A model generated the notes under the pieces. The model had not been told where the DNA came from. It did no database searches and saw only the letters and a list, made by a program, of their open reading frames with translations. From positions 2,969,269 to 3,033,268 of the forward strand of contig NC_057759.1 in assembly GCF_004010195.1 (NCBI RefSeq): DNA of 64,000 nt. Direction: 5' to 3'. Every line of letters starts with the position of its first letter. Within the stretch, counting starts at the first letter, position 1. This document shows positions 14,186 through 56,474 of the stretch, piece by piece. Position numbers and translations under genes: made by a program. This DNA comes from Chiloscyllium plagiosum. Its lineage: Eukaryota.

Positions 14186-15090
14186 TTATTGTTGTTGACA
14201 TAACTTCCTGTTGAGCGTGAACAGGAATTTGAAACCATTCCTCAACTCCTCTCTGAATTTCCTTTGTGTCAATCCATAAATACAAGTGTTTGTGCAGGAA
14301 CTAAGAAGCTGCAACATAAAACCAAACTGTTGCATAATATATATGGGAGTGCTGTAATATTTGTCTTTGTAAAAAGTATTTACCACTGGCCATTTGATTG
14401 AATGCACAACATATACCATCCACAATATTATAAAATTAGCAGAAATAGTGAAAAGCAAAATCATAGATTTTCTGCGATTCTTGATCTCTGAATCATTCTG
14501 ACACTCAGTGCTTTTCAGAAGTATCTTACGGACTTGATTTGCTGTTAATATATGTCTGACAGTTAAAGTACTGAAAGACAAAATAAACAGGATTGGTAAT
14601 AGTGGTGTTATGGCGCTGTCAATACATTCAAATGCTGCCCATAAAGGCGAGGTGAGATAATCATGCGTCTGAACGCAATGCCACTGCACATTATCAATGA
14701 TAAAAGCTGGTGCAAACATAAAATAAAAGGGGATGGTCCTCAGGCAGCTCAACACAAATACAGTGAGAACAACCACAATTGCATTTCTCCTCGTGCAGTA
14801 TTTTGACTTAAACTTCTGAAAGCAAATTGCAACAAAGCGATCGAAAGTGAATACCACAGTAAACCATACAGAACAATCAACACATACAATATAGGTGACA
14901 AGGTTTACAGTGCACACTGGCATTAGAAAAAGGAAACTAATGGACATATGCATGATATTAATCCTGTATAATATCACATGGAGTACAACCACAGCAAGGT
15001 CCACGAGTGCCATTGCCAGAAGGTATGTAGTAATGCATTTGGAGAGACCACACTTGCCTCGTGCTAAGATCACAATTGCTGATAAATTAA
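14186..15090 (-). CDS. GPCR-1 coding exon 2: class A GPCR, GPR139/GPR142-like (TM1 end to C-terminus)
   Basis: Uninterrupted ORF with a 7TM pattern: VNLSAIVIL (TM1), LAMALVDL (TM2), TFDRFVAIC (DRY-like), ITPLLP (TM5), CTNTCIY (NPxxY variant), KFREEL (helix 8). Acceptor tttcttacag|TT at 15091. TAA stop at 14186-14188. Confidence 0.93.
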
Positions 15091-16137
15091 CTGTAAGAAA
15101 AAAGAAATGCAAAAATTACTCTGAGGGCATCATAGACTCTTTTGTTCTTTCAAAGAATCATCTGAATTAGCTTAATGGATTAAACTATGATATTTCTAGC
15201 TCTACTTGCAATATAAAATTGAATTTGGATATATTTCATGATCGTGTTGATGACTGGAACAAATTAACAGAGACAATTATTTAAATTTAAGTATGAATTG
15301 TATCAACAATTTTCATGATCAAAATAGAAGCGTGCAGCAATTTCAGTACATAGAACATATCAAGATCCCTTTATGTGCAAAAGGTCTGTGAAATGGTACT
15401 GTTCTTTTTGGTTATACTCCATGCATCTAGAAATGTTGCATTACTTTGCAAAGCTCATTGTATGTTAAACAAAATCCAGAATGATCTTCTGAGTGTTACA
15501 GCTCACAATGAGGTTAAATTTGCTGTTTTTGTGACAATGCACCTTTTACAAGCAAGATATTCACAGCTATAGATTCGATATCAACTGATCCGCATTTCAC
15601 ATAATGTGGAGTGCCATTTGAACATTTGAGCATGAACGTATCTGGAGCAACTAGAAATAGGAAATGTGCCTGCAGGCTTACATACATTTTCAATCAAGTG
15701 TTGTATAATCAAAATATTTCCACATATCTGAGTTCCTGATTTTCTGAAAGAGCATGACTTTATACTGCAAACGGGTTGACGACATTCAGATCAAAGAATG
15801 AAGTTAAATTTCACAATCGCTGACAGCTACCAGAAAGATCATTACAGCTAAGAGGAACGACCGAGTAACTTGAAGTAAAAAACGGATTGAAATAAGACAT
15901 TATGTGTCATAAAAAAAGCCTTAAACTACACATGCAACCCAACGAGTGACAGTTGGTCATTCCTTAATCTTAATTATTTCTGATCTCTCATATTGCAGGG
16001 ACAGTTTCCACCGAAACAGCATTGAACGTTGAAAATAAAGAACAAATGTTTTTGACACTGATATAACAGGACAGAAAAAATGAATACAAGGTAAACAATT
16101 ACTTTGCAACTTTTCTTGCCTTGCTTCAATAACTAAC

Positions 16138-16207
16138 CTGGAATACCAACTGCTGCCAGAACGGGATAGTAAATTAGCTCTATCTGATAAATTACAGGAT
16201 ATACCAT
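16138..16207 (-). CDS. GPCR-1 coding exon 1 (MVYPVIYQIELIYYPVLAAVGIP)
   Basis: ATG at 16207, 23 codons + 1 nt, donor CCAG|GTTAGT. Phase 1 joins exon 2 in frame (G+TT=Val), giving 324 aa with a complete TM1 (YYPVLAAVGIPVNL). Not in the ORF track in this frame. Confidence 0.88.
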
Positions 16208-16325
16208 GCCTCCACCTTGCAGAAATATTTTCGTTCTGCAAAATATTGTAATCTCGAACTGGAGAATATCGAAACATACACAGATACACTTTATAAATTG
16301 AATAGTTATACTTAAATGAGACCTT

Positions 16326-16333
16326 ATTTTATA
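16326..16333 (-). promoter_or_regulatory. Candidate TATA box of GPCR-1
   Basis: TATAAAAT on the minus strand about 120 nt upstream of the ATG. Motif only. Confidence 0.35.
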
Positions 16334-16439
16334 GAATTTGATAGCAGGTGTTAGTTATGGTCCAATAATTCATGTAATGAACTACCTATACTCTGTAGAT
16401 TCGAGTGTGATGTAATATAAGTGCAATATCTCAGCCTTA

Positions 16440-23389: not shown

Positions 23390-25865
23390 GACGAATGATC
23401 ATCATCAGCAAAAGCCTCACTTTTATCACCCTCTGTCCACACATCAATGAATTTAATACACGCTGTGACATTGAACACTTCTTCCATCGCCTCCACCTCC
23501 GTGCTCACTTTTACAATCAAGATTCCTGCCCACCTTCCGAGGACCCCTTCGCCCACCTCCAACACACTCCATCAACCTGGACACCCCACGCTGGCTATTA
23601 CCTACCCTTGATCTCTGCCAACAGCCACCGAGATATTAACTGCCTCAACCTGTCTACACCGCCCCCCCAACTCCAACCTCTCACCGTCACAACGCGCAGT
23701 CCTCCACTCCCTCTGCTCCAATCCCAACCTCACCATCAAACCAGCAGATAAAGAGATAAAGTGGTAGTTTGGCGCACTGACCTCTACACCGCGGAAGCCA
23801 GACGCCAACTCAAAGACACCTCCTCCTACCTCCCCCTCGATCATGACCCCACTCCCCATCACAAAATCATCATTTCCCAGACCATACAGAACCTCATCAC
23901 CTCAGGAGATCACCCACCCACAGCTTCCAACCCCATAGTCCGGGAACCTCGCACCGCCTGATCCTATCTCCTTCCCAAAATCTCCAAGCCTGACCACCCT
24001 GGCCGACCCATTGTCTCAGCCTGTTCCTGCCCCACTGAACTCATCTCCACCTACCTTGACACTATCCTATCCCCCCTAGAACTCCCCACATACGTTAGGG
24101 ACACCAAGCACGCCCTGCACCTCCTACAAGACTTCTGTTTCTCCGGCCCCCAACGCCTCACCTTCACCATGGATATGCAATCGCTCTACACCTCCATCCA
24201 CAATGACCAGGGCTTCAAAGCCCTCTGTTTCTTCCTCTCCCGACGTCTCCAACAGTACCCTTACACCGACACTCTCATTCGTTTGGCTGAACTTGTCCTC
24301 ACCTTAACAATTTTTCCTTTAAATCCTTCCACTTCCTCCAGACCAAAGGGGTAGCCATGGGCACCCGCGTGGTCCCCAGCTATGCCTGTCTCTTTGTTGG
24401 CTACGTTGAATAGTCCATCTCCTGTAGTTACACCGGCACCACTCCTATCTCTTCCTCTGCTGCATTGATGATTGCATTGGGACCACCTCGTACTCCCACG
24501 AGGAGGTTGAACAATTCATCAACTTCAGCAACACATTCCATCTCGACCTTAAATTCACCTGGACCTTCTCTGACACCTCCCTACCCTTCGTGGACCTCTC
24601 CATCTCCATTAATGACTACCGACTTGACAGTAACATTTGTTTACAAACTCACTGACTCCAACAGCTACCTGGATTAAACCTCTTCCCACCCTACCTCTTG
24701 CAAAAATGCCATCCCGTATTCCCGATTCCTCCGCCTCCACCGTATCTGCTCCCAGGAGGACCAGTTCCCCCACAGAACACACCAGATGGCCTCCTTCTTT
24801 AAAGACTGCAATTTCCCTTTCCACATGGTTAAAGATGCCCTCCAACGCACCTCGTCCACATCCCGCACCTCCGCCCTCAGACCCCACCCCTCCAACCGTA
24901 ACAAGGACAGACGCTCCGATGCTCATCTTCCACCCTACCAACCTTTGCATTAACCACAAAATCTGACGACATTTCCACCACCTCCACACGGACCCAAGGA
25001 TATATTTCCTTCCCCACTCATTTCCACTTTCTGCAAAGACCTTTCCCTCTGTGACTACCTGGTTAGGTTCACGCCCCCGTACAAACCACCCTCCCATCCT
25101 GGCACCTTCCCATGCCACAGCAGGAATTGCAAAACCTGCGCCCACACCTCCTCCATCACCTCATCCAAGGCCCCAAAGGAGACTTCCACATCCATCAAAG
25201 TTTCACCTGCACATCCACCCATATCATTTATTGTATCCATTGCTCCCGATGTGGTCTCCTCTACATTGGGGAGGCTGGATGCCTCCTCGCAGCGCGCTTC
25301 AGGGGACATCTCCGGGACACCCGCAACAATCAATCCCACTGCCCTGTGGCCCAACATTTCAACTGCCCCTCCCACTTTGTCGAGGACATGCAGGTCCTGA
25401 GATTCTTCCACCGCTGCTCCCTCATCACTCGATGCCTGGAGGAAGAACGCTTCATCTTCCACCTCAGGACACTTCGACCCCATGGCATCAATGTGGATTT
25501 CATCAGTTTCCTCATTTCCCCTTCCTCCACCTCACCCCCAGCTCCAACCTTCCAGCTCAGCACCGCCCTCATGACTTGTCCTACCTGCCTATCTTCCTTT
25601 CCACCAATCCATCCCACCCTCCTCTCTGACCTATCACCTCCATCTCCACCCCCATTCACCTATTGTACTCCATGCTACGTTCTTCCCATCCCCACCCCCT
25701 CTCATTTATCTATCCACTTTTCAGGCACTCTGCCTGTATTCCCGATGAAGGGCTTTTGCCCGAGCATCGATTTTCCTGCTTTTCAGACCCTGGCTGACCT
25801 TCTGTGCTTTTCCAGCACCACTCTAATCCAGACTCTGGTTTCCAGCATCTGCAATCCTTGTTTTG
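23390..25865 (+). mobile_element. Penelope-like retroelement (RT + GIY-YIG), frameshifted
   Basis: IKPADK, PGRPIVS, MDMQSLYTSI, GVAMGTR, CIDD; GIY-YIG IIYCIHCSRCGLLYIGE; hammerhead-like 3' repeat. Confidence 0.92.
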
Positions 25866-26436
25866 ACCTTTTACAATGAACAGCTAATGTGTGTCCTTGA
25901 TAAGTATGTACCTGTAAGACAGGGAGAAAGTGGTCGAGCGAGGGAGCTGTGGTTTACTAAAGAAGTTGAATCTCATGTCAAGAGAAAGATGAAGGCTTAT
26001 GTAAGGATGAGACGTAAAGGCGCAGTCAGGGCACTTGAGGGTTACAATTTAGCCAGGAGTGATCTAAAAAGAGAACTCAGAAGAGCCAGGAGGAGACACG
26101 AGAAGCCGTTGGTAGCTAGGAACAAGGAAAACCCTGAAGTTTTCATAGGTAAGTCAGGAATAAAAGGATGACTAGAGTAAGATTAGGGCCAATCAAGGAC
26201 AGTAGTGGGAAGTTATGTGTAGAGTCAGAGGAGATTGGAGAAGCGCTAAGTGAATATTTTTCGTCAGTATTCACAATGGAAAAAGACACTTTTGTCGAGG
26301 AGAAAATTGAGATACAGGCTACTGAATTAGACGGGGTTGAGTTTCACAGGCAGCGAAGAAGGCCAAATGGTATGTTGGTCTTCACTGGAGAGGTTTCAAG
26401 TACAGGAGCAGGGGTGTGTTGTTGAAATTATACAGG

Positions 26437-26619
26437 GGAGAAAGTGAGATCTGCAGATGCTGGAGATCAGAGCTGAAAATGTGTTGCTGGAACAGCGCAG
26501 CAGGTCAGGCAGCATCCAGGGAACAGGAGAATGACGTTTCAGGCTTCCTGAAGAAGGGCTTATGCCCGAAACATCGATTCTCCTGTTCCCTGCTGCGCTG
26601 TTCCAGCAACACATTTTCA
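26437..26619. mobile_element. Miniature inverted Penelope-end element with 13-bp target-site duplication
   Basis: gaaattatacagg flanks both sides (26424-26436 and 26620-26632). Internal inverted arms. Confidence 0.8.
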
Positions 26620-30370: not shown

Positions 30371-30374
30371 CGGC

Positions 30375-37689: not shown

Positions 37690-37992
37690 ATACCAGGGAT
37701 AGAATGCTCCCTAAAACGTAAGTTATAGAATGTTCTGGGGAATATTGGTTATGAAAAGTTACGGGAAATGTTGGGTACAGAATGCTCTGGGGAATGTTAT
37801 TTATATAATGTTCCAGAGAATGTCAGTATTAGAATGTTCCAGAGAATTCAGTTAGAGAACATTCCACAGAATGGTGTTTATAGACCATTCTGGAACATGT
37901 CGGTTACAGAACGTTTCAGGGAATGTCGGTTATAGTACATTCAAGGGAATGTAGTTTATAGAACGTTCTGGGCAAAGTCAGCTATAGAATCT
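37690..37992. repeat. ~26-bp minisatellite (gttatagaatgttctggggaatgtcg)
   Basis: About 11 diverged tandem units. Confidence 0.85.
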
Positions 37993-39559: not shown

Positions 39560-40830
39560 GTTTCATAATGCTGAAACAAAGACATTTCGATAGCATCCTG
39601 CAACTTGGTCCAGTTTTGCCAGGAATGATGGGTGAACGGAATGTTGGTGTGAGTTCAGATGGCGGAGAGTTTTAGATGAACATTTGTTCTGCAGCTTTGT
39701 AACTGGCAGTGGGGTCAGCAGAGTCATCGACTCATTGGGCTGCATCTAATAATTTGTCTCAGTGACATTTTCATTGAGTTTGAATGAGTTTGAAAACACA
39801 GAGATCGTTTGCACGAGGCTGAGCTAGTTTCCTGGTGCTATCTTATCGAATTCACTGCATTAACGACTTAGCGAACCCATGGTGGCCCTGTCTTTCAACG
39901 CCAGCCCGATTTTCCCACCCATCATGGCTGGATGTACTCACCATCGCTCGGATGCCCCTGGATATTCCGTGATGCTTTGCACTGGTGCCATCTTTAAAAG
40001 GACAATGAGCACACTGTTTATCTTTCTCAGTTCAGAACAGGCCTGCACAGTTTACCTCGAGCATGGCAGATAAGGGACAATCGCACTACGATTTGTCGGA
40101 AGGGGCACAGAGGTCCTGGTGGATGTGCTAGTACAAAGAAGGACCATTTTCTTACCAGAGGCGGCATGGCCTGAGCTCCCCACCCAGCTCAGTATTGTAT
40201 CTGTGGTCTGAAGAAATACTGGACAAACATCAATAACATTTCTCGCTCTGCCAGGATAAGTGTCACCGTATTCTCTCTGCTCTCTCACCCTCACTGTATA
40301 TCTATTATAGCACTTATCTTTGAACAAGATCCACCTCTCTCACTTCAGCATGCAACACGTTCCCGCTCTCTCTCCCTCCTCTATACCTCCACAAAAATAG
40401 CACTGCATGGATAAAACACTGTGGACTGACTCAATCTGGACACATCACCATTCTCCTCTCCCCACCTACATAAGCACTATCATCAGGGTCACCCACTCCC
40501 ACCCTCATGCCCTCCCTCCTTTTCTCCCATTCCGGGAGAAACAGCCTGTAATAGAACAGAAAAGGCTAAGCCGGGCAGTGAAATGTCTGATATTTGTTCC
40601 CGCCTCCCCCCACCCCTATGCCGCTATTTGGGGAGAACCATGGCATGAGCTGGAGAGGACGGAGACGACTCGTGTGGAGAACCTGAAATATCCACGTCGC
40701 ACTAACAGAACAAGGAGCAATGTTCGGAGAAGGGTAATTCTCACTTTGAACTCAATGTCAGTGCCGTTTCCCCTTGGCACAACTTAAAAGCCGCAACCAT
40801 GATGCCATTTCCCGCTTGCGATAAGCTGGT
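39560..40830 (-). pseudogene. Possible relic TM plus small cytoplasmic exons of a type I membrane protein
   Basis: VRITLLRTLLLVLLVRRGYFRFSTR near 40670-40750, followed by three short AG..GT-bounded segments near 40157-40208, 40056-40127 and 39941-39991. Confidence 0.25.
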
Positions 40831-41459
40831 ACAAATTGAGTCGCCATGGTCTCAGTAGGCAGGAGGGTGGGCTCACAACACATCATCACCTCCACCTCCT
40901 GGGAAGGGAGCACAGAGGCACCCTCCTACACATCCTCCTGTAAACAGTTCAGATACTGAAACTAATCTGCAATATTTACTGCTCTCCTTGCTTGTCCTGG
41001 CATCATCAATGATCTGTGTTCATATGCACAGCGTCCTCTGCTCCTACATCCTTGATATAACAGTACATCCTGTTTATATTGTTTTCACTGTTCTTCCCAA
41101 TAAAGTGTATCACCTCACACTGTTCTGCATTGATCCTCATCTCCCTTATAACCGAACACTACATCAACTTGTTGCTGACTTGTTGGAGTTCCGCACTCTT
41201 TTCTGCACACTGTACAATTCATCCAGGTTTGGTATCTGCAAGCGTTGAAATCGTCATAGGGACACACTCCACAGAAATACTGACACACTTAGTAGAATGA
41301 GAAAGTAAAATCTTGACAGACTGTCCACAGAGCAACAGACATACTGACACATACCAGACAGAGCGAGTGAAATATTGACAAAATGATCAAGGAGCAAAAT
41401 AATTCCTGGCAGATTGCCCATGTCTGTATGAATGACAATATATTTGTGTGTTTTTAAAG

Positions 41460-43800
41460 CTTTTGTGAAGATCTGTAGTTCTAGAGCTGTCTGCTTACAT
41501 TGTTGGTCTATTCGCTGAGCTGGTCAGTTTGTTGGCAGACGTTTTGTCCCCTTTTTAGATGACACCATCGGTGCTCTGTTACCTCATGTAAAGCACTGTT
41601 GTACTGTTCCACTTTGAATTGATGTGGTTTTATTTGAGATGTTTCCGGATGGTGCCTGTTAGGGTTTTCAATTGCAGTGGTTTGTATATCTGGTCCAGGT
41701 CAGTGTGATTGTTGCTGCAGTTCAGGGAAAGGTATCGTGCTTCCCTTTTTGTTCTTTGCTTGGCCTGTCCAGGTATCATTGTCTAATCCAATTCAAACTC
41801 ACAGTTCTTGCTGTCTGTGTTTGTGTGGATAGCAGAGAGAGCTGGTCTTGCTGACTGGTTGCTGGTTGTAACTCATGGATAAGGTTCGCTGTTTATCTGC
41901 GTGTATGTCCTACTCAGTGCTCATTGTAGTCCCTGCATGGGGTTTTGCAAATTACATTCGTCCTGCACATAGTGGGTATCAGGAGTTTTATTCTAGTAAA
42001 CAACTGTCTGAGTGGCGGTCGGATTGTGTGCTGTGAAGATGGTCAGAACTGTCTGGCTAATTCCTACATGCTTTTAATGTATGGAAGAGCAGCCAATGTG
42101 TTATGGGGTGTCTTGTCTTCTTCATGTTGCTTCTCTGCTACACATCGACTGACGAAGTTGTTATCTGGTTTTAGCAAAGACTTTGTATTGGTGTTCTTCT
42201 TCCTCTCTTCACAGTTCAGGGGTGCTGCAGTGTGTCGCTTCTCTCTTGAACACGTTCAAATGCAGCTTCTCTTGTGAGTCTTTGGGTCGTTGATTATCAG
42301 TATCTGTGGTCTTTCTGTGCACGTTTGTTTGACATTCATCATTCCTTTGCGGCCATTGCACCTAGGAATGGGAGTTGGTTTTTCTTCTCCTCCTCTCTGG
42401 AAAATCTGATTCCAGTGAAAACGCTGTGGATCTTCTGCTATGTTTCTCGATCTCAGCTCTTTGATTATCACAAAAGAATCATCAAGTTTCCTGACCCATA
42501 GTTAGGGTTTGATCTGTGGGAGAGCTATCTGTTTGAGGCTTCTCATTACTGCTTCAGCTATGTGCCCCGAGATTGGTAAACCCGTAGGCGTCCAATTGAT
42601 TTTCTCATATACCTGGTAATGAAGATAAAGACATAGGTCAAGTAGTTTTAAATGGTATCTTTATTGTTGAGTTCATATTCGTTTTGTCCAAGAGCTTTGC
42701 TACATTTACTTTGGCTAAAGTTATGTCAATTGAAGTAAAACGTGCTGTATTATCAAGTGAGACCATGACCTCACCTTTGTCCATATTCAGGTTCCTGATG
42801 TTTTCCAGAAATTCATTTGATGAGTCTAGAGAGTGTGAGCTCCACCAATAGTGTGTTGAAGCCCAACGCAGTAGTTCCTTGGCTTGTCTGTGCGTGAGGG
42901 TTCTCAGTTGGGAAACAATGTGTCTGAGGGATGTGTTTGGTTTATATACTTTTGGGAGTCTGTGGAATTGTGGTGTGTTCGTATTTTCTGATTTCTAACT
43001 TTGTACATCCATCTTCGTTATGAGTCCGCTCCTCTGTAGATTCTGTCGTGTGTTAATCCTGTTAACTATGACTGGTGTCGGGTCTGACTCCCTCTGTTGG
43101 TAGGTGTTGGTATCCATGCGCAGTTTCCCTGCCTTACATATGTCATCTGCTCTGACCATTACCACTGTCATTCGGCCTTTGTCAATTGGTATTATTTCTA
43201 TGTTTGTGTCATCTCTTATTCCTTGGAGGGCTTTACTTTCATTTATATTCAAGGTGTTTGTTGATCTTATTCTTGTCAGTGCGGGTACTATAATTTAACT
43301 GATGGTCTGCTGTTAAATGTGTTTGTTTTCAGAGTGCTTTGCAGTGCTTCTCGGAAGTCGGTCTGTCTTGCGTCCTTGTGGTTGCAATTGAGTCCTCTCA
43401 CTAGTACATTTTTCCACTTGTCTGACTGTTGTCTTTTTGAATGTTTCTCACACAGTTGTATATTAGTTTATCTTATTTGCTGTGGGTTAGTGTGGCAAGG
43501 TTTTTTTGTAGTGCGGTTCTTTTGTAGTGTGGTTCTGTTCTGTCCAATGGTAATTGCCTGGTCGAACGGCACAGCCCACTGCTGATTGTTTAAACTTAAA
43601 ATTAACGACTTTTGACACGTAGTTTCTCGTCTGCATCTGTGAAGTCTGTTGTGTTAGGAAACTTGTATCATCCTGTAGCCATTCTGTTTGACTGTCTCTT
43701 CAGCTTGTAGATTGTGGATTGATAGTTTGCAATTGACACTGAGTGGTAATAGCTGGTTTCATAAGCAACAGCGAAGAAAGTGGAGATGTTCTTGCTTGCT
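41460..43800 (-). mobile_element. Penelope-like element, second family, decayed
   Basis: IIPIDKGRMTVVM, TPTGLPISGHIAEAVM (GTPMGSP-like) and eroded GIY-YIG near 41900-41960; same family as 63365-64000. Confidence 0.8.
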
Positions 43801-44069
43801 TCAGTGTATCTCACCACTAGCTCCTTAAAGTTACCAACAACGAATTCCTGCTCATATCTGTAAGTCTGTGTTAGCCTTTATCTATGCGTGTGACGCGTCT
43901 GACAATCTCCGTGGTGTTAAAAGTGATGCACCACCCCCACCCCCAAGCAACAGCTGGACTTCACATCCTGCTGCATCTAACATGTTTGGAGAGTATAGTA
44001 CATCAGGGATTCAGTCTGGGAGGGAGAGAGGGAGAGAAGCAGCTCACAGCGCCATCCAAACTGACAACA

Positions 44070-44198
44070 AACACACGCACACACAGACACACACACGCGC
44101 ACACACGCACACACACCCATAGACACGCACACATACTCACAGAACCACACACAGACACAAACCCACAGACACACACACACACACACACACACACACAT
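44070..44198. repeat. (CA)n microsatellite
   Basis: Direct inspection. Confidence 0.95.
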
Positions 44199-44959
44199 CT
44201 AATAAAGGGAGGATTGGAATTGCACAAAGGCGCCCGAGAACGGAAAACGTTCATGTGGAAAAATGCAGCTCTCTCTGCAATGTGGAAATGATTTGGTTTT
44301 GAACATCATTTGTGTCACAGAATGTAAAAAGAGTGTTTCCACTGCAACTTTATAAAAGCAGCCTGAATGGACGATTTGGTTAGGAGATAAAATGAATTGT
44401 ATTGAACGTTCATTAACTTGCAATATTTTACAATTTCTTTTTAAGTGAGAAAGGATTGAAAAATCAGGAAATAGACACGACAGTGGTGAGTAAATTCTCA
44501 GCAGCAACATCACTAGGTCTTGGGCGAAAATGCTCTGTGCATCCAAAGGCATTCTTTGATGCATTTTCAAAAAACTAAAACCTGCCTGTTGTGCAGTGCT
44601 ACATACAAGCGAGCAGAGAGAGATATTGTACGATTCAAACACAACAGGGAGAGACGGGGCGTCAAGCGGGGATAGGCTTTGATCACAAATTCAATGGATT
44701 TACTCGAAAAATGACACAGACCTCATTGCATAAATATGCTGGCAAAGATACCCAGATACACAGACAAATACACCAATAGACACAACACATACATAAAGAA
44801 ATGCACACCGGTCTGGACACTAACACACAGACATGCCCACTCTGTCCGCTTTTCTGTTTTTTTTTCCATCTTCCCCCTACTTTCTTAAAATTACCTGATA
44901 AAGAGATGTCGTTGTGGGAAGCAGCTTCGATGGGGATTTGAGCAGTGTCTTCAGAAGCA

Positions 44960-45215
44960 GCGTGACTACAGCGAAGGCAGGCTTGTGAAGGCTGGAGTGG
45001 GCCCATGGATGCGACATGGCTTGGGCTGATTTAGCACGGAGTGGACCGCTGGCTGCAGCATGGCGTGGGTTGGTATAGGCTGCAGTAGGCAACTGCAGTG
45101 GCATAGCGTGGGTTGGCGTAGCCTGGCTTGGGCCCCAGGCAGTGGCATTGCATGGGTTAACGTACTCGAAGTGAGACAGTGGTGATGGCATGGCGTAGGC
45201 TGGTGTAGCCTGGAG
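44960..45215. repeat. Degenerate GC-rich tandem repeat (gcatggcgtgggttggcgtaggctg)
   Basis: Recurrent unit; gives the HAM/TPT repeats in ORF 44877-45251. Confidence 0.6.
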
Positions 45216-46890
45216 TGAGAATGTAGCAGCAGAGAAGGAAAAGTTGGACACTCTTTAAGTTTGTTGTATAAATTCTGAGTAAATGTAAATGCCGCCTGTG
45301 CATGGCAACCGTATGCACTTTTCACTGTATTTAATATTGAATACACGTGATAATAAACAATCAAATACAAAACAAAACACGCAAACTGAAACACATAGCA
45401 CACCCATACACCGAGAGAGAGAGCAGTGCCTTTATGGCAGAAATCGGTAAGTATTTCATTCATAGAGGCATCAGTAGTCAGTTGGAAAAAGCTGGAATGG
45501 CTTTTAGAATTATTTCAGCCCTGGTCAAACAGCACAGTACTCGTCATGTGCCAGTGGACTAATTCAGAACCAATTTCTTATGCTCTTATGACTTTGTTCA
45601 GTGAAGGCTGAATTTGGTATTTGATTGAAGAGTGGACATGTTTGAGGGGCTGAGTGATATCTATCTGGTCCTAATTGTGTTGTCATTTGAAAAGCGTGGT
45701 GAGGGGAACACGTTTTGAGAATAAGGCATACCTATTTCAGACTGAGAAGATGTGCCTTCATCTTTAGCATTGTGCGATCTGTGGTGTTCTCATTTTGAAG
45801 ATGCATTCAGGACTGGGTTAAAATAACATTCAAGGTTGGGTTCCAGAGAGCTCTTTTTTGCTCTTCGGATCCCCCTATTAAGTGCACTCCTACACGTTTT
45901 ATAGTCATCTAGGGATTCAGTTGAACAGTTCCACCTGCCAGCGATAGACGCATGGCCATCTAAATCCTTCTTATTCAGATACACACCCAGATGTCTCTTA
46001 AGTATTACAATTATACTCACCTGTACCAATTCCACTGGCAGCTCGTTTCATACATGCATGAAAAGGTTTCACCTCAAATCTTTGTTTTAAAACTTTACTC
46101 TTACTTGAAATCAATCCCTTCTAGTTCTGGACTGCTCCAGCCTAGGAAAATAACTTTGGCTGTTGACAGTGTCCTTGCCCCTCAGGGCCTCTTCAGACCT
46201 GAGGATGAGAGATGTCGGTATTGAACCATATAACATCTGAGAAGAGTACATCGGGGGCGTAGGTGACGGATGGGAGGCTAAAACGAAGTCAATGCATTCA
46301 TTTTAACTCAGATATTATAAACGCATGCATTTGTTGTACAGAAACTGTGCAGGCACATCCAAACGTGCCTTCAAATGATAAATTATAAATAATTTGTTAC
46401 GTGAAGCAGAGAACAGGGATATAATCATATCATCTAAAGAATGTTCAAGGAGACCTCACATAGTCCAGTTTGGTGGTCGGATAACATTCTTGGAAATTTT
46501 ACCTGAGAGAAGGAAAAACTTCGCATGTGTAAGAATCGACGGTCTATTGCTCTCTCCTTTCTTGTTTCTCTACGTAACAATATATGAGAGCTGCGGGATC
46601 CTTTCAAGAATAGAAAGAGGTTTGAAAAACTTTGTTCTCCCTTAATATCAGGGATGTGGCTCAGAGAACCATGGAATTTACAGTACAGAAGGATCCATCT
46701 TGTCTATGCCTCCTGATTAAGCTACCCAAAAAGCTGAATCATCTAGCTGTATCTCCGTAGCTTTTAAATTTATCACTCATCTGGTGCAGCGCCTTAACAC
46801 CCTTCAATACAATCATTTTTCCGAATACTTCCGCTTTAATAGTTATGCAGTTTAGCAATTTCTGCCGTTCCCCCAGTTCTCTTGTTTCAG

Positions 46891-47215
46891 GAAGGTTTTC
46901 TGTTCCATCCTGTATGTAGACACAATCAATGCATTCACCTCACTGGGCAGAGGGGGCCTCTGTCACCTCGTGATACATCAGAGATCGAAACTCTGACACA
47001 TGATTGATGTGTCACCCCATTCGGCCTGGAAAGTTCCAGAATCAAACAGGATTTTTTCGTATCAAGAGTGAGCCTCCAGGTTATGCTGAAGGAGGTGGCA
47101 CAGCTCGGTGAGTTTCTCATTGTTCAACCAGACTGTCTTTACATTTTACACTTGGAATAAATGCAACGTTTCAAATCCCAGAGAGGACACTGCCGTGCCC
47201 CGCTCCTCTCTGCTT
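46891..47215 (+). pseudogene. Decayed antigen-receptor-like V exon (IgL-sigma/TCR-gamma-like features)
   Basis: Acceptor cttgtttcag|GA, phase 1. M*TQS..AEGASVTS*Y..LMCHPIRPGK..GFF..PGYAEGGGTAR*..FTLGI, then after a frameshift EDTAV (47183-47197). Framework order LTQS / GxSVTLxC / WYxxxPGK / EDTAVYYC is preserved. Confidence 0.62.
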
Positions 47216-47293
47216 ACACAGCTTCCATTCTATCTAGTTTCTGCTCCATGTTTGAAGCCATGAAGTAGACCCAGATATATTGTAAATGCCGTG

Positions 47294-47340
47294 CCTATAC
47301 TTCTTCCAGAGTGGGTTCACCAGACCCTGTGGTCTCCCTG
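47294..47340 (+). pseudogene. Possible decayed J-like segment
   Basis: TAC TTC TTC CAG AGT GGG TTC ACC AGA ..GTG GTC resembles F-G-x-G-T-R-L-x-V, about 80 nt after the V end. Confidence 0.3.
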
Positions 47341-48358
47341 AATGAATGCAGCAGCAAACAACACAAACACAAGAAAGCCATCCACAGCATCCCCACTGGA
47401 TTACAATGACAGGAGAAAGTCAAATCCGTGTATACATGGCACACCTACTCAGTGTTGAAAATGACTGCCTATTCTATTTCTTTTCCTGGCTCCTAAACTG
47501 TTCCATCTCCACACAGTTCCAGTGACTTGAAATATAACAGTTCTCAATAGATTTATTTGACAATGCAACTGCACAATTTTCTGCACCTCAGTCACGCTAA
47601 CAGCAACATTACTGTTGCCAGTGGAGACGGTTGAATTAGGTATAGAAGCAATTGTCTATCAGTATGATCTCTAAAACATTAATTTATAGAACTATGTAAT
47701 GGCTCAGAGTCTGGATTCAAAACCGGCCACGGCACATGGTGGAATTCCAACAAATAAAGGGAACTTGAATTCTCAATTCTTCTTCAGCCAATAATATCTG
47801 GAGAACAGGAAGGATCTCAAGGTTTATTTGTAATATTCATAAATCTTGACAATGCGAATGGGGGGTGTTGGAGGGTAGGGTAGTTATGTTTGTGGATGAC
47901 ACAACAACTAGCTGGGTAGTTCACAGTGAGGAGGAATGTGTGAGGTTACCGGAGGATATGAACGGGTTGTTCAGATAGCCAGATCAATATGCAATGATAC
48001 TTAACACTGATAAATGTGAAGACAGGCTGGATTTGCACGCACTTTTCTGTGGAGCAGGGAAGATTGGCGCAGGATGCTGAGGGAGGTGCATTAGAGCAAT
48101 TAAGGTCTGGGCAGGGTGAACAGATAGCTAATGTTCCCCTTCAGCGAAGAGTCAAAAATAAGGGACACGCTTTTAAAGTAAGAGATGATAAATGATTTTT
48201 AGAAATGGTTTTGAACCCTGAGAGTGGTATGTGTCTGGAATGCACTACCTAAGAGGGAGTTTGAGACAGGTAACCTCACAAACTTTATCAACCACCTAGA
48301 TCAACACTATGTGATGCAGATTCCATCGACCTCTTCTTTATTATATGTTTCTATGTAG

Positions 48359-48600
48359 TACCAACCATGAAAGTTCTGATATGCCATGAAGCACTAAACA
48401 GTGGCTTCCGTTCTATTCCCTCAGCTGCGTTAATTAAATGGTTATACTGCAAATCAGCATCACTGCATGGAGTATCAGCACTTACTCAATCAAGGACAGT
48501 CCAGCATTTCTGAAAACATCCATGATCATTCACGTGCACAGTGCCAGAATCATCCAACAGTAGCAGCAACATTATTCTCGTATTGCTTCGATGACACCAA
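48359..48600 (+). pseudogene. Decayed C1-set Ig constant domain exon
   Basis: Acceptor ttctatgtag|TA, phase 1. PTMKVLI..EALNSG / LSCV / NGY / ISITAW / STYSI / SFTCTV occur in C1-set order across frameshifts, with an internal deletion. Confidence 0.58.
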
Positions 48601-48799
48601 CAATATTGTGGTTTTCCCTTCATTGTAATAAATATTCCAAGCTGGGATTTTAATTTTCCTACCAAAGACTGGCAGTGCCAGAGAGTTAAGGGTTTCAGAT
48701 CGGGTGAAATATGTTAAATGCTTTCAGTCAATTTAGCTCAAGTAACATATAGAGGATCCAAAGTGGGAAGGGGCTAAACTCAATCTACGCTTGGGGAAT

Positions 48800-51200
48800 A
48801 GAGCAGGACACATGACGGAGGTAACATTGGGTAGCACTTTGTGACCAGTGACCACAGTTCCAGTAATTGTAAAATAGTTCAGCTCTGCAACCTGTCTATG
48901 TGTCTCTGTAAACTGCAATATCCTTCAGCACTATCCACAACTCCACTGACCTTACTGTTATCTGCAAATTTACTTTCCACTCCATCTATGCCCTCATCCA
49001 GGTCATTTATAAAAATAACAACCAACAATGGCCCCAAAACAGATCTTTGCGGTTTATCACTAGTAACTGAACTCCAGGATGAAAATTTCCCATCAACCAC
49101 CACACTCGGTCTACGTTCAGCCAGCCAATATCTGATCCAAAATGCTAAATCAATCTCAATCCCTTTCCTCCGTAGTTTGAACCGTGGGGAACATTTACAA
49201 AGACCTTACTGAAATCTATATGCACAGCATCAACCGCTTTACCTCCATCCACCTTTTTGGTCACCTTCTCAAATAATTTAATAAGGTTTGAGAGGCACAA
49301 AACTATCCTTCACAAAAGCATGTTGACTATCCTGAGTCAACTTATTCATCTCTAATTGATAATAAATCCTCTGTCTTATAACCTTTTCCAACATTTTACC
49401 CTCAACCGAAGTAAGGCCCACTGGTCTATAATTACTAGGGTTGTTTCTACTTCCCTTCTTAAACAAGGGGACAACATTTCCTATATTCCAGTCTTCTGGC
49501 ACTATTCTTGTAGAAAATGATAACACAGAAATCAAAGCCAAAGCCTATGCAATCTCTTTACTGGCTTCCCAGAGAATCCTAGGATAAATGCCACCCGGCC
49601 CAGGGCACTTATCTGTTTTCACACATTCAAAACCTGCTAATACCTCCTCTTTGTGAACATCGATCCTGTTTAGTCCAGTAGACTGTATCTAATTATTCTC
49701 CTCGCAAACATTATCTTACAGGTGTGAATACTGACGAAAAATATTCATTTTGCATTTCCCTATCTCCTCAGACTCCACGCACAACTTCGCACCACTGTCC
49801 TCGATTGGCCCTAAACTTTCTCTCATCATTCTTCGATTCCTGAAATACTTAAAGAAAGCTTTAGATTTTCCTAGATCCTATCTGCCAACCATATTCTCCT
49901 CCTGGCTTTTCTTAGCTCTTTCTTTAGGTTCAAAGTTTAGGTGAATAACACGAGGCTTTCTTTAGGTCTTTCCTGGCTAGCTTGTAACTTTCAAATGCCC
50001 GAATTGAGCCTTAACGTCTCATTCGAACATAAGCCTCCTTTTTCCTCTTGATAAGAGATTCAACTTCTTTAGTAAACCACCGCTCTCTCGCTCAACCATT
50101 TCCTCCCTGCCTGACAGGTACGTACTTACCAAGAACACGAGGTAGCTGTTCCTTGACTCAACTCTACATTTGAAGTGTGCCCATCCACTATCCCCTTCCT
50201 ATTCACGTGAGAAAAAGAACAGGAAATAACATCAACACAGCAAATGACATCACCACAAGAAATGACATCACCAACCCCAGGAAACCTAAACACATAAACA
50301 GAAAGCGGGTCATGAACCCCAGTGCTTCACTGGAGGCTCTCTGATTATGTTACTGAGTATGGTGACACCATGTCTGACAACGAACCTTCCAGCTCAGTGA
50401 GCAAACGTGCAACCAGAACCTTAATGTGCGCTACACATTTTCTCAAAATTCGATAACCGAATTGTGGTCACCATCACAAAAGCGCTCACCTATCTCCAAA
50501 TCTAACACCTGACCAGGTTCATTACCAAATCCAATGTGGCCTCACCCCTTGTTAGCCTGTCTACGTACTGTGTCAGGAAACCATCAGATGCATATTGGAC
50601 AAAAACTGACACATCCAAACTACTCGAACTATCGCATTTCCAGTCAATATTTGGGAAGTTAAAGACCCCATTAAAAACATTACCCTATTACTCTAGCTCC
50701 TATACAGAATCTTTTTTTGCTATACTTTCCTCTACATCTCTGGAGCTATTCGGAGGATGATAGAAAGCTCTCAACAGGGTAACCTTTCCTTTCCTGTTTC
50801 TAACTTCAGCCCATACTACCTCATTAGACGAATCCTCAAATGTCCTTTCTGCCAGCGTAATACTGCCCGTGACTAATAGTGACCTTCCTCCCCCTCTTTT
50901 ACCATCTTCTCTCTTCTTACTGAGACATCTAAATCACAGGAACTGCAACAACCATTCCTGTCCCTGCGCTATCCATGTCTCCAAAATTGCCACAACATTT
51001 AATTACCAGGTACCAACCCATGTTGGAAGTTCACCCACCTTATTCCACATGCTCCTGGCGTAGACACACTTCGAACCACACTCCTGCCTGCCAGTGAACT
51101 CATACACAGATCTGGAAACCTTATTTCTGACCTCACTACTATTAACCTCCTGGACACTGGAACTACAGTTTGGTTTCCAATTCCCCTGCTGAATTAATAG
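48800..51200 (-). mobile_element. CR1 LINE ORF2 fragment with a nested short Penelope-end piece (~50210-50455)
   Basis: VPEDWNIGNVVPLFKKGSRNNPSNYRPVGLTS, PQRSVLGPLL..SKFADNSK, NARSMWNKV-like start. Confidence 0.88.
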
Positions 51201-52149
51201 GCCATGTAGCACCAGTACCTTGTTACACAGTAACATTATCAGTCTGATCAGCTTCCTTAAGCAAGTAACACAGGAAATGGGAGATTCACTGCAGTGGGGT
51301 ATACTGGAATAACACGAGGCTATTTAGCACCTCACGTTTGCCTTTCCATTCAGTAAAATCAGAGCTCATCTGCTTGACACCTCAAGTTCTCTTTCATGCC
51401 TAATTCCTTGCAGCCCTCAACTCTCTAATGTGTCAAAATGCATTTACACAACGCTCCCCCCAAATATTTCGGTGATGTAGTTCGACTAATTATCTGGGAT
51501 TAGAGTCCTACCAGTCACTACACTCTGAGAGAGGGAAGCACTCCCAACACATATGCCTTGAACTGTTGACATGAACAAATGCTATGAACACAGCATAAAA
51601 GTGACTGACCCTGATATCATGACGGTACTTGACTGAGCAAAGTGTCATGAAGTCTGAACGAAATTGATATTAATGAGACTCAGTTATAAACTTCCAACTA
51701 GTTAGGTAATCCAGGACACAATGTGATTGCTGGATATCAATCATCTCAGTCCATGGATATCTCTGTGGGCGATCCTCAGAGCAGCTTCCTCGGCACAAAC
51801 ATCTTCAGCTGTTTAATCAATACATTTCCCTCCATCATGTGAACAGAAGTGGAAATGTTCAGTGAAGATAGCACAATGTTCAGAATAATTTATCACCCAT
51901 TCAGAAGCTAAAGTATCAAAACCTGGACAACATTCAAGCTTGTGTTTTTAACGTGTAGGTAACATTCATGTAACAGCATTGCCAGATAGTGCACACTTCT
52001 AGGGTAAGAAAAGAAGAGCTCAGTCAGCATCTCAAACTGGTTTCACAAGAATATGAGAAAGCCATTAAGCCAAACGAGCTTATTGGATAAGAGGAGGCAC
52101 AGCCCATGCACTCTTTCCTGCCTGTTACACAGGAAGAGATAAAATTAAA

Positions 52150-53470
52150 CTGGAAATGTTGGAATTCAAAGTCGACAAACAGGAGGCTGGGAGAACACAC
52201 CAAGCCGAGAAGCATCAGGAGATTAGAAGTTAACAGCTTGTTTATAACCCTTCTTCAGTTCTGGAAGTGGGGGTGAAGGGAGCTGCAGATAACGAGGTAT
52301 AGGGAAGGGTGGAGCGGGGTGGTGAGGTGGGGGTAGGTGAACACAGATAAAGGGTACGACGTTTTTGGTTGATGGGAGGAATGAATCTGGTTGGTAGCTG
52401 GAAGAAAGAGTCTTTCTGAGGAATGGAAGGGAGGAGGGAGGGCAAAGGAAGGGAGGTTGTTTGAAAGTGGAGAATTCAATATTGAGTCGTTCTGACTGTA
52501 GGGTGCCCAGGCGGAAGATTGGGTGTTATTCATCCAATGTGCAGATTGAGTCGTTGTGGAGGCCAAGGGTGATCATGCCGGAAGGAGAGTGGGAAGGGGA
52601 ATTAAAATGGATGGTAATTGGAAGGTCCTGTCGGCCCCTGAGGATCTGGCTGCAAAGCTCAGTGAACCATTCACTAAGTTTACGTTCCATCTCCCTGATG
52701 TACAGAAAACCACATCAGGAGAATCAGATTCAGAAAACTATTTTGGATCCCACCACCTGTTACATCTTCCACGAGAACCATTCCCTTCGCCAGTCCTTGG
52801 TTTGTACCACAATCTCCTCCAGTTCCCCCAGGTACCTTGCACTGCCATCAGAAAAGATGCAGCACCTGCCGGTACATCACCCCCCTAAATTCCATCCAGG
52901 GCCTTAAACCTGCTTCCAGGTGAAACAGAAGTTCAGCTGCATCTCCTCAAAACTTGCTTACTGCATTCTGTGCTCCCAAGGTGGTCACAAGCCACATTGG
53001 GGTGATCGAATGTAAACTAAGTGCACGTTTTGCTGAGCATCGCAGATGGGCCCCTAGGGCCTGACTGAACCTCCACCAAGTGCCCATTTCATTTCACCCT
53101 CCCACTCTGTCTCTGACATGTCCTTTATTGATATAGTGAGACAGTCTGCAAGGTAGAGGAACAGCATCTTATCTTCTGACTGGGCAACCTACAGCACAGA
53201 GGACTCACCAGTGAGTTTTTCAGTTTGAAATAACCTGCCCAGCCATGCTCTAAATCCTTTTCCGTTCCCACCTCCTCTCTTCCATTCCACCAGATTCATT
53301 CATCCCATCGACCAACCTAGTTTTGCCCACCACTTGTGACCGCCTTGCCCGACTGCATCATTTTGCTGATCTCTGAACTATCCCTCTTCTCTCTTTATCT
53401 GAAGAATGATTATACCTGAAACATTGACTTCTCCATCTCCTGATGCTACCTGACTTCCAGCCTCCTGCTT
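52150..53470. mobile_element. Inverted pair of Penelope 3' fragments (minus ~52150-52740, plus ~52740-53470)
   Basis: Both arms carry GIY-YIG remnants and the same terminal repeat in opposite orientation. Confidence 0.7.
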
Positions 53471-53699
53471 GTCTACTATTACACAGGAAGACAAGTCTTG
53501 CCAGCATGTCACACTGGTAAACAGGAACCATGGGTCGTCCAATACTGTCGTTGAACCTCTTCCATGGGACCAGAAGAAGGACTTTCAGCCCCTCGAGAAT
53601 CTAACACATGGACAGCACAGGCCATTCAGCCCCGCAAATTTGATAAATAGGAATAGGAGAATGTCATTGATGCTTCAACACGACTAACCACTGAAGCAG

Positions 53700-53920
53700 A
53701 GATTGCACAGATAGACTGCTTCATGTTGTTCGTCCTGGTTCCATTTCTATTAACACACTCGTGTTACTTTAACGTGGTTTGCTGATGGTGAGGAGGGAAA
53801 GTGGACGGTTTGTGCTAAGTCTCAAGGGGACATCTTCCATCTCTGAGAAGACAGAGCAGTGTTCTGTACGGAGTTCAGATGCTCGTGGGAACGGCCAAAT
53901 CTTTCAGATTGTGGCTGCTG
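53700..53920 (+). pseudogene. Possible decayed V exon with in-exon J-like end
   Basis: Fragments HVVRPGS / RRESGRFVLSL / EDRAVFC (53847-53867) / GNGQIFQIVAA in V-then-J order across frameshifts. Confidence 0.35.
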
Positions 53921-54659
53921 ATAGATTTGTAAACAACATGATATTGCAGGGTCAGACACCAACAGCACATTGAGATGGCAAAAATTCATTCAATGCCAGG
54001 AACTCTCTTTCAACCCAAATCGGGGCTCCACAGACATACTTACACTTTCACTGAGTCATAGCGTCATACATCACGGAGACAGGAAGTTCAACCAAAGCTG
54101 ATCCATGCTGACCAAACTCTTCACCCACGCTCACCCCATTTCCCTACACTTGACCAATATCCATCTCAGGTTTTCTAATCCATGTGTTCGTCCAACTGAA
54201 AACACGCGTCACAGATTAAAAACTCATTCCCTTCAAGCTCTCCTCACTGTAGCATAATCGCAGGGATTAGTCTGGCAAAACTCCTTTACACTATCTCATT
54301 GTGGCAAGGAGATCATTTCTTACAAAGGAGAGAAATTCTGTACACAGAGTCTCAATAACACTTCACAACTGCAGGAAGGTGTCTTCACTCCTATAATCAT
54401 TTTGCAATGAAGAGCAGCCTACCATTTACTGTGCTGATTATCTGCCGTGAGTACAAATTCTGTTAGTGACTCATCACCAAAGACATCCAGCTTCTTTTCA
54501 CCAAGAACACTTCCCATCCTCTTACCTTCTACTAAATACAAAATGAGAAGGATGGCATTTTTTGCCAAATTCTTTTTATTTTACCTCGCGAACAGCTGTT
54601 CTTGAAGCACAGTCACGCCAAAAGTAGCATCATTATTACCAATGGAGGTGTATGGAGAT

Positions 54660-55140
54660 GCTGGGTAGGCGATGGCCTAGCGCTATTATCTCCAGAATAT
54701 TAATCCAGGGGGCCAGGTAATGACAGAGAGTCCGGATTTGAATCCTACCGTGTCAAACAGCGGAATTTGAGTCAATAAAATCTCAGGAATAAATAATCTA
54801 ATGAAACAATGAAGCCATTGTCGATTGTCAGAAAAATTTTACCTGGCACTCTAATGCCCTCAAGGGAAGGAATTCTGCCATCTTCACCTGGTCGGACTTA
54901 CGTGTGACTCCAGTCCCACAACAATGTGGTTGACTCTCAATTTCCCTTTGAAATGGCCAAGCCAGCCACTCAGTTATATCAATCACTACAAAATCTCAAA
55001 TAAGTGAAACCTGACTGACCTAAGCACTGACTAATTACAACCCAAGGATGGCAGTGATTCAGGAAAGTAGCGCACCAATACCTTCTCAAGGACAATGAGG
55101 AAAGAGAATTAAATGTTGGCCCAGCATCCCATTAATAAAT
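54660..55140 (+). mobile_element. Deu-domain (SacSINE1-like) SINE
   Basis: tRNA-like head and core gggaaggaattctgccatcttcacctggtc..gtgactccag..atgtggttgactct. Confidence 0.65.
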
Positions 55141-56341
55141 AAAAGAAGATGATCACACTCAGGGAAGAGAGACAAAGGGACATAACTTTAAAGAGGGATT
55201 TTGATATGTACCCTATATGAGTATGATATTTAGCAAAGTGCGAACATGAGAAAATAAATAATATTAACTTCGTATTTTATTTCCATTCCACCTATCAATC
55301 CTTTCTTTGCTCCTTCTTTTCTCTCTCTCTCTTTCTTCATCTATTCCACTCACACTTGCTCCCCTTCACAATCGACATCCCTGTCACAAACATTAATCAT
55401 ACCATTTCTTAACTGTGTTATGTTCTGATGTGTGGTCAGTGGACTTGAAATGTCAACTCTGTTTTTCTCTCGACCCAAGGCTGTAAAATTTGCGTTACTC
55501 TGGCATTTTCTCGTTCATATTGCTTCAGATCTCTAGCATCAATGTTTGTTTTTTTAAACCTTTAAGCTTGTTATATGGGATATCTGCATTTGTTGATCTC
55601 ATTAAATGCCATTTATCGTGAGGCCATTCCTCAAGGCACATTGTTGTGGGTCTGAAGTCAGTCTTAATTCAGACCAGGTGATAATGCTAGATTTCTTTAC
55701 CAAAGGACATGAGTGAATAAGATCAGCTTTTCGAGAAAATGCTGGTGGTTTTATGGTTGACATTAGTGAAATTCGTTTTTATTTCCAATTCCTGTCATTT
55801 ATTTGAAGATCTGACAGCATCAGTGGAAGGATGTGAAACACTATCTTTTGCTTAATCACCTGTGCTTGTGAATTACCTGTCTAGAGACGTTACTACTTTG
55901 ACTCAGTGCCCCTATCGTGAAGTTACTTTAGAAATGAGAAAAATATTTTGATTGAAACAATTGTAACTGGAAGAATGCTCAGAAGAGAGCTTTAACCGTA
56001 AAGTCTTAACTTTAACAAGGCATAGATAATGGCATGGCTTCAACTGCATTGACAGTGAGATGGGAACTGGGGATGTTTTGTAGACCTGATAGCTTTGGTA
56101 ATGGAGAGAATGCAGAGACGTAAATCAATTCAGGCTAAGGGCACTCGGGATTCTGAACAGTCTTGCTCTCAAATGCTTGTGAAGGCGGGGAATAGGGTCT
56201 GACATTTGGGTAATGAATTGAGTTTGCAATTGAAACTGAAGGAACTAGTTTCTGTCCTCGTCAAGTACAGATATCATAAATACCAATGAAGTTCAACATA
56301 GTTTATGTAATTAATAAATGGACAGAGATATAGAGACTTAC

Positions 56342-56474
56342 CAGGAACACCAACAATAGCGAGAATGGGATAGTAACCTGCTTGAATAATCCTCAGCACA
56401 CCTTCTATCCGGTATGGTAATATTGACCAAACAGAAGAGATTAAATATAGACCCCAGGATAAACTTCTTTCCAT
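56342..56474 (-). CDS. GPCR coding exon 1 (MERSLSWG...GYYPILAIVGVP), probable first coding exon of GPCR-2
   Basis: YYPILAIVGVP matches YYPVLAAVGIP of GPCR-1. Perfect donor CCTG|GTAAGT, phase 1, in frame with the acceptor at 37136 (353 aa). No other YYP-type exon was seen in between. An upstream acceptor (cccattgtag, 56576) suggests a 5' non-coding exon. Confidence 0.8.

Follow-up and report, generated by a model that had tools for sequence, protein, structure and literature searches.

The window analysed here, a 64,000-nucleotide stretch of Chiloscyllium plagiosum DNA (GCF_004010195.1, contig NC_057759.1, positions 2,969,269 to 3,033,268 of the forward strand), carries on its minus strand two open genes for class A receptors coupled to G proteins (GPCRs), A (324 amino acids) and B (353 amino acids). 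They represent two subfamilies within a large set of class A GPCRs in chondrichthyans, which is real and apparently an undescribed birth-and-death repertoire of sensors that grew from a new root. Three elements are new here: a root among GPR210-like receptors, loss of Arg6.51, and the pattern of variable loops set against a conserved pocket. Our leading interpretation, held tentatively, is that the repertoire senses foreign peptides, most likely in chemosensory epithelia. Genes A and B are made up of the following parts.

16138..16207, minus strand: gene A coding exon 1, 70 bp, encoding the N-terminus and the first half of transmembrane helix 1 (TM1); matched by relatives in tblastn, best 87% over 23 aa.
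15091..16137, minus strand: gene A intron, GT..AG, phase 1, within TM1, 1,047 bp.
14186..15090, minus strand: gene A coding exon 2, encoding the rest of the seven-transmembrane (7TM) domain, helix 8 and the stop; best relative Heterodontus, 75% identical.
56475..56521, minus strand: disabled upstream N-terminal extension of gene B, with an out-of-frame ATG at 56521 (a nine-codon upstream open reading frame, uORF) and an in-frame TGA at 56501.
56342..56474, minus strand: gene B coding exon 1, 133 bp; tblastn homology E=6.9e-20.
37137..56341, minus strand: gene B intron, 19,205 bp, GT..AG, phase 1, placed in TM1 as in gene A; predicted junction.
36208..37136, minus strand: gene B coding exon 2; best relatives carpet sharks, 83-86% identical.

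The two long 7TM reading frames (14186-15115 and 36208-37167, both on the minus strand) each start in the middle of TM1, just behind a splice acceptor, and at E<=0.01 their exon-2 products match only the Pfam family 7tm_1 (E=2.8e-17 and 3.3e-16). A preliminary description of this DNA had held that both frames are open and that the genes share an intron in TM1, and both statements stand: the receptors are intact, and each gene has a GT..AG phase-1 intron at the same TM1 codon (1,047 bp in A, 19,205 bp in B). The two proteins are identical at 145 of 319 positions (45%), and each departs from the family at two conserved columns, which is ordinary (medians 1 and 2). The closest relatives of gene B, at 83-86% identity, are from zebra, whale and bamboo sharks. 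We assigned the distant exon 1 to gene B because of its tblastn homology and because the same carpet-shark paralogs are the best matches for both exons; the junction across 19.2 kb is thus a predicted one. A search close to B exon 2 for a decayed or nearer exon 1 found none. Gene B may still be two half-genes, although both exons derive from the same paralog bloom.

The out-of-frame ATG and the in-frame TGA in the upstream extension place the start of gene B at the second methionine. The upstream N-terminal segment, with its N-glycan sequon, is kept in many B relatives; gene B is without any sequon, and the N-terminus is likewise sequon-free in 26 of 74 related models. A 14-aa N-terminal unit containing a sequon varies in copy number among B-type receptors (P0005, P0015, P0039), reaching about five copies in P0039.

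Both receptors have the residues expected of an activatable class A GPCR: N1.50, D2.50, D-R at 3.49-3.50, P5.50, W6.48, N7.49 and Y7.53, and the cysteines that join TM3 to extracellular loop 2 (ECL2). These motifs are nearly invariant across 192 aligned sequences. An AlphaFold model of P0012, a close relative of B (81% identical), has a predicted local distance difference test score of 87 and a 7TM fold with helix 8, and matches class A receptors in VIA-align with Z of 25.5-26.9. Every motif quoted in the preliminary description is present; the proline-less NxxxY of TM7, which it had singled out, is not special, as human GPR139 also lacks that proline and NPxxY occurs in none of 120 GPR210-like proteins. 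Separately, a cluster of intracellular cysteines is highly conserved in intracellular loop 1 (ICL1), the end of TM3 and ICL2 (in B: C58, C63, C135, C136 and C144); lipidation or metal binding are guesses at its role.

The size of the family was estimated in a protein library clustered at 90% identity, with E<=1e-10 as the family cut-off. The exon-2 product of B retrieved 1,929 relatives and that of A 2,070. Among the 238 distinct matches listed, 234 are named, and all of these come from sharks or rays (21 species); the other four are unnamed. The automatic name of most is 'probable G-protein coupled receptor 139'. By a hand tally (58+28), no fewer than 86 of the distinct 90%-identity clusters listed come from a single species, Heterodontus francisci. 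These counts are of clusters and not of curated genes, so that isoforms or haplotypes may inflate them and close paralogs may have been merged. A profile built from 75 members found 139 representatives at E<=1e-30 among proteins clustered at 50% identity, and of 20 deep-branching representatives examined 19 are chondrichthyan, two of them from Callorhinchus, and one lacks a species name. Thus the expanded cartilaginous-fish repertoire that had been proposed is borne out by some 2,000 relatives, with every named match listed being chondrichthyan, and the alternative of few paralogs in one-to-one orthology with GPR139 and GPR142 fails on the number of clusters in a single species. Some family clusters carry the Pfam label Srw (16% in the top Atlas cluster).

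FastTree places 45 of the 46 carpet-shark sequences of the B subfamily in a single clade (support 0.875); of the 58 Heterodontus sequences, 55 are grouped, with a support of only 0.2. Such lineage-specific blooms point to birth-and-death evolution of the family. The two Callorhinchus members fall in different places in the family tree, so the expansion predates the split from chimaeras. Several gene models (P0297, P0303, P0254 and P0357) appear by eye to be chimeras in which family members are fused to integrin-alpha-like, sodium-channel-like, hemopexin-like and uromodulin/GP2-like exons, probably reflecting the neighbours of other family clusters. Human GPR139, for its part, adjoins GP2 and UMOD.

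A single A or B sequence scores about 30 bits against human GPR139, and the family profile finds human GPR139 as its best match among solved structures (E=1.3e-17, 67 bits; the next scores 53). The same profile gives far higher scores to receptors outside the expanded family: 215 bits for a salamander receptor (P0333, the best of the non-chondrichthyan proteins), 205 for a coelacanth receptor, 166-192 for shark receptors of single-copy type, 111-138 for anchovy, bichir and caecilian receptors, 135 for one from amphioxus and 106-112 for two unnamed invertebrate-like proteins. Vertebrate orthologs of GPR139 share 70-96% identity, and the gene has two exons (PMC7318219). The structural identity of the P0012 model to GPR139 is 21-22%; together with the score of about 30 bits, the multi-copy state and the altered pocket, this rules out A and B as orthologs of GPR139 or GPR142. 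The label 'GPR139-like' in the preliminary description therefore survives only as a distant relation, the nearest relatives being GPR210-like receptors. Fold comparison did not single out GPR139 either: it lay outside the Foldseek top 50 and ranked 42 and 49 in VIA-align, just over one Z unit below the top, and, being one among near-equal class A matches, it indicates that the fold carries no family information.

Species in the coelacanth-type group are mostly represented by one entry each; they include sharks, ray-finned fishes, amphibians, turtles and squamates, and no mammal or bird appears among the named rows of its top 120 (about 30 rows are unnamed). Its Scyliorhinus member is 66% identical to the coelacanth protein. 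The coelacanth protein P0336 may be the subtype named GPR210B. An IQ-TREE analysis with an invertebrate root, which covered 45 of 99 sequences, GPR139 and GPR142 not among them, unites the expanded family with the salamander receptor and the coelacanth-type group in a single clade (99.9/100); the trees drew on 57 of 150 representatives, partial ones being excluded. Within this clade the coelacanth-type group, which has shark members of its own, stands separately (100/100), as does the expanded clade (80.5/90). A and B are 29-33% identical to GPR210-like receptors, and orthology with the coelacanth-type group is ruled out, as that group's own clade already includes sharks. P0333 is placed as sister to the expanded clade with FastTree support of 0.93 and weak IQ-TREE support (43/86), and the salamander receptor might represent an ortholog of the shark family that has survived in single copy. 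The conserved salamander receptor (P0333, P0385, P0388) has a lysine at 6.51. Two single-copy GPR210-like proteins, P0398 from Stegostoma and P0496 from Hyla, are annotated as isoforms of TMEM183A, a hint that the location of the GPR210-like gene, next to or inside TMEM183A, may be conserved between shark and frog. The GPR139/142-related subtypes GPR210A and GPR210B have been described from coelacanth, gar and fishes (Rinne et al. 2019, PMC6504862), and sharks are never mentioned in the available text of that paper. The best explanation of these relationships would be that the repertoire arose by repeated duplication of a single-copy GPR210-like orphan, a side branch of the GPR139/FMRFamide-receptor group.

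The ligand pocket offers a marker of this transition. GPR139 needs F3x33, H5x43, W6x48 and N7x38, and R6x51 has been modelled as an anchor for the polar group of its ligand (PMC5430874). At positions 3x33, 5x43, 6x48, 6x51 and 7x38, gene B has Y, H, W, L and F, and gene A has I, D, W, Y and F, so the Trp/Phe pocket set of GPR139 and GPR142, which are receptors for L-Trp and L-Phe, is matched by neither. The shark family resembles GPR139/142 in having two coding exons, W6.48, a TM7 motif without proline and, in gene B, an acid at 7.36 and H5.42; it differs in being multi-copy and fast-evolving, and in that R6x51 and N7x38 are absent from A and B. With the GPR210-like receptors the family shares a related ICL1 cysteine motif (C-x-[LM]-S in 78 of 120 GPR210-like proteins) and the proline-less NxxxY. 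In contrast to them, it has lost R6.51 and the ECL3 motif D-R-x-D-Y. In the GPR210-like group, R6.51 is present in 121 of 122 proteins (and in the amphioxus, anchovy, bichir and caecilian receptors), D7.36 in 120 of 122, and the R, D and Y positions of D-R-x-D-Y in 117-121 of 122; in the expanded family, R6.51 occurs in 1 of 43 representatives, which have 15 different residues at this site, and in 0 of 192 close matches. The expansion thus coincides with release of what appears to be an ancestral ligand anchor, and we infer that the two events are linked.

Variation in the receptors is concentrated on the side that faces outward, as the preliminary description had supposed in assigning them a signalling face that is conserved and a ligand face that varies. 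A and B are identical at 51 of 146 outer-face positions and at 93 of 165 inner-face positions (Fisher p=1.7e-4), in line with its claim of a divergent extracellular side. Entropy across the 192 sequences, from an alignment that left out 48 of the 238 matches as falling outside 290-400 aa, is higher for the outer face, at 1.84 bits, than for the inner face, at 1.01 (p=1e-15). Rates were estimated over 291 sites in 45 carpet-shark paralogs of gene B with a median identity of 84%. In this bloom 71 of the 291 sites never change, and the fastest class comprises 5.9% of sites at 9.8 times the mean rate. Changes per site reach 14.1 in ECL3, 11.8 in ECL2 and 8.5 in ECL1, compared with 1.4 in TM3 and 1.2 in ICL1; on average, the intracellular loops and helix 8 have 2.4 changes and the extracellular parts 11.1. 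All 20 of the 20 fastest sites lie in the extracellular set (ECL1-3 and the outer ends of TM6 and TM7), where 3.7 would be expected (p=8e-17), and specifically they fall in ECL1-3 and the outer end of TM6. Each of the nine fast sites listed has 10-14 different residues. The pocket of the same paralogs is nearly invariant: 44 of the 45 sequences retain D2.57, and the same number holds for R2.61, H3.28, E5.39, H5.42, R6.59 and E7.36.

The genes as a whole appear to be under purifying selection. Between A and B the ratio of nonsynonymous to synonymous rates (dN/dS) over the whole gene is about 0.25 (dN 0.49, and dS about 2.0, near saturation), and not the value near 1 that would have counted against the proposed repertoire. 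A biased subset of 24 coding differences listed from relatives' reads comprises 12 synonymous and 12 nonsynonymous changes. If the mean dN/dS in the bloom is also near 0.3, a class evolving tenfold faster would carry the fastest sites beyond neutrality; this points to diversifying selection on the outer loops, by an argument from amino-acid rates and not as the result of a codon model.

These patterns lead us to a mechanism. The fixed polar pocket of each subfamily (in the B group, D2.57, R2.61, H3.28, E5.39, H5.42, R6.59 and E7.36) would grip a shared part of a peptide-like ligand, and the hypervariable sites in the N-terminus and ECL1-3 would read its variable part, so that jointly the paralogs could respond to a wide range of foreign peptides, for instance cues from food, prey, microbes or conspecifics. 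A fixed grip combined with a variable read-out of the rest favours peptides over single amino acids as the ligands, and a foreign source is suggested because receptors for endogenous peptides stay stable and environmental sensors turn over. GPR139 couples to Gq/Gi, and by analogy all paralogs would signal through a common G protein, probably of that kind. The likeliest sites of action would be chemosensory epithelia: the nose, the mouth, gills and skin, or the gut. There is a precedent in the nematode srw receptors, which are related to FMRFamide/myosuppressin receptors, show rapid gain and loss, and have been proposed as sensors of environmental peptides (PMC2576165). The likeness lies in birth-and-death expansion from the FMRFamide/myosuppressin-receptor group; the srw family differs in belonging to another phylum, in its separate origin and in showing no clear positive selection.

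A bolder version of this proposal, which we regard as doubtful, is that the repertoire is a fifth vertebrate chemosensory family and the largest in sharks and rays: peptide sensors descended from an orphan of GPR210-like type, in which antibody-like hypervariable loops surround a fixed pocket, and expressed sparsely in olfactory, oral/skin or gut sensory cells. Like the OR, TAAR, V1R/ORA, V2R and T2R repertoires (and FPR and MRGPR), the family shows clustered paralogs, lineage-specific blooms and a conserved inner with a variable outer face. Unlike OR, V1R, T2R and V2R proteins, A and B match none of those families' profiles, only Pfam 7tm_1, and their root is GPR210-like. The repertoires reported for the catshark are small: 8 OR-type genes, 2-3 each of ORA, TAAR and TARL, and 32+3 V2R-type genes (PMC11979771).

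Several observations weigh against a chemosensory peptide repertoire under diversifying selection. Of the 45 models in the B bloom 18 are partial, and many are automatic predictions; positive selection is inferred from amino-acid rates only, and the precedent itself, the srw family, gave no clear sign of it (PMC2576165). The copy of gene B in this genome may be weakly translated, given its lack of a sequon and its uORF. No GPCR is among the 50 most specific genes reported for a catshark 'brain & olfactory epithelium' library, and the principal olfactory family of the catshark is taken to be the V2Rs (PMC11979771), two points that do not bear directly on a family of many genes at low expression. 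Public reads give no evidence either way on expression: the public-run look-up listed no RNA run for B exon 2, and at 80% likeness nearly all reads and contigs over that exon and its flanks in four runs came from other paralogs or relatives. In run X21, 24 of 912 aligned reads were at least 95% alike, with the depth peak in a 3' flanking repeat. Over the exon, depth was low in both directions and reads continued into the intron; the runs carry no tissue label.

Hypervariability of the loops rather than the pocket suits pathogen-driven change equally well, and this brings in the best placed of the rival explanations, which we nevertheless consider unlikely: that the receptors are immune or barrier sentinels on leukocytes, mast-like cells or nociceptive endings, detecting microbial or parasite peptides. 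Formyl-peptide receptors and MRGPRs provide the analogy for such a repertoire. Rates of about ten times the mean, confined to loops, would suit an arms race; MAS1 and its relatives are reported absent from cartilaginous fishes (PMC8455134), which would leave this niche free; and 9 kb away from gene A there is a weak relic resembling an Fc receptor. That immunoglobulin (Ig) context is, however, statistically marginal, and the ancestry of the family lies in the GPR139/FMRFamide-receptor group and not in the chemokine or FPR group.

Improbable, in our judgement, is an escape model in which each subfamily has one common endogenous ligand in its fixed pocket while the loops diversify to evade docking by pathogen proteins. 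Such a model would account for a nearly invariant pocket with hypervariable loops in the B bloom, but it leaves unexplained both the dozens of open paralogs per genome and the change of pocket between subfamilies seen in the 15 residues at 6.51 among 43 representatives. Less probable again is recognition of self, kin or mates, in which the receptors would coevolve with polymorphic shark-made peptides in a pheromonal or reproductive role. The lineage-wise turnover of the repertoire is compatible with this, as is a snail expansion of FMRFamide-receptor-like genes that has been linked to reproduction (PMC11589774); no matching peptide family was found, and none was looked for. Least probable of all is neutral bloat, a duplication-prone cassette of largely redundant copies: repeat-rich surroundings, the partial, chimeric and tandem-fragment models common among the matches, the lesions in the upstream extension of B and the tandem array beside its exon 2 would fit, but frames are open, conserved columns are kept, dN/dS is about 0.25, and drift would not place 20 of 20 fastest sites extracellularly with 2.4 changes inside and 11.1 outside.

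Peptide sensing in chemosensory epithelia thus remains the reading we prefer, and the repertoire merits attention for several reasons. A literature search, with most subscription papers beyond its reach, found no description of a shark expansion; neither do the supplements of PMC8455134 (24 files, with one line on GPR142 and none on GPR139), PMC13188829 (8 files) and PMC6504862 (1 file) describe it. The evolution section of a 2025 review of GPR139 does not mention it (PMC12208981), and a 'relative paucity' of GPCRs is what the whale shark paper attributes to cartilaginous fishes (PMC8455134). The genes are visible in RefSeq and seem to have been overlooked under the misleading automatic label 'probable GPR139'. 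A family that numbers at least 86 distinct members in a single shark would be larger than any of the chemosensory repertoires described for the catshark, which are led by about 35 V2R-type genes (PMC11979771). Its origin can be traced to a conserved orphan still present as a single copy in sharks, fishes, amphibians and reptiles, with loss of one anchoring arginine marking the transition, and the combination of a fixed pocket with hypervariable loops names specific residues for testing. If the family does prove to be a fifth chemosensory one, it would help to explain how keen chemical senses are achieved with only about 50 reported canonical olfactory-type receptor genes.

Around the two receptor genes, the window contains repeats and a few Ig-like candidates.

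4855..5130, plus strand: frameshifted Ig-superfamily-like exon relic, weak (Pfam Ig_3 E=0.17; 8 of 8 PDB matches are Fc-gamma receptors, best E=0.055).
8990-9316, plus strand: Ig-like candidate found by eye, ending in a phase-1 donor; no database support.
53700-53960, plus strand: C1-set-like motifs found by eye, on the opposite strand within the B intron.
23953..25879, plus strand: broken Penelope-like retroelement with reverse transcriptase (RT) and GIY-YIG, between A and B.
60342-61490, plus strand: Penelope-like copy with a 382-aa open RT frame, 76% identical to the 23953-25879 copy over 1,060 bp.
37702..37986, minus strand: 26-bp tandem array of 11 units in the B intron, some 570 bp upstream of the acceptor of exon 2; no other such array occurs in the window, so neither first exon has one upstream, and a look-up of its sequence gave no match.
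7950-8831, 2379-3111 and 61576-61751: tandem arrays of 47/93-bp, 17-bp and 62-bp units.

The preliminary description had placed the receptors among decayed Ig genes. This is weakly supported, by one relic (4855-5130, E=0.17); for the candidates at 8990-9316 and 53700-53960, searches of PDB, Pfam and Atlas gave no Ig support, nor did any of 17 other open reading frames in the window give an Ig match. The segments at 4855-5130 and 8990-9316 are possibly parts of one decayed Fc-receptor- or CEACAM-like gene, and additional relics may exist in the window. None of the three candidates resembles an antibody gene, and the one at 53700-53960 is alone in falling within 14186..56474. Motif scans found matches resembling recombination signal sequences at 2978 and 44045 and no V-exon motif in the window. 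This context lends almost no support to an immune role.

The preliminary description had called the block rich in transposable elements; repeats are real and plentiful, if ordinary, with self-similarity of at least 22% of the window and Penelope-like and other pieces resembling long interspersed nuclear elements. Near the 26-bp array in the B intron there is also a TATA-like site, at 38357.

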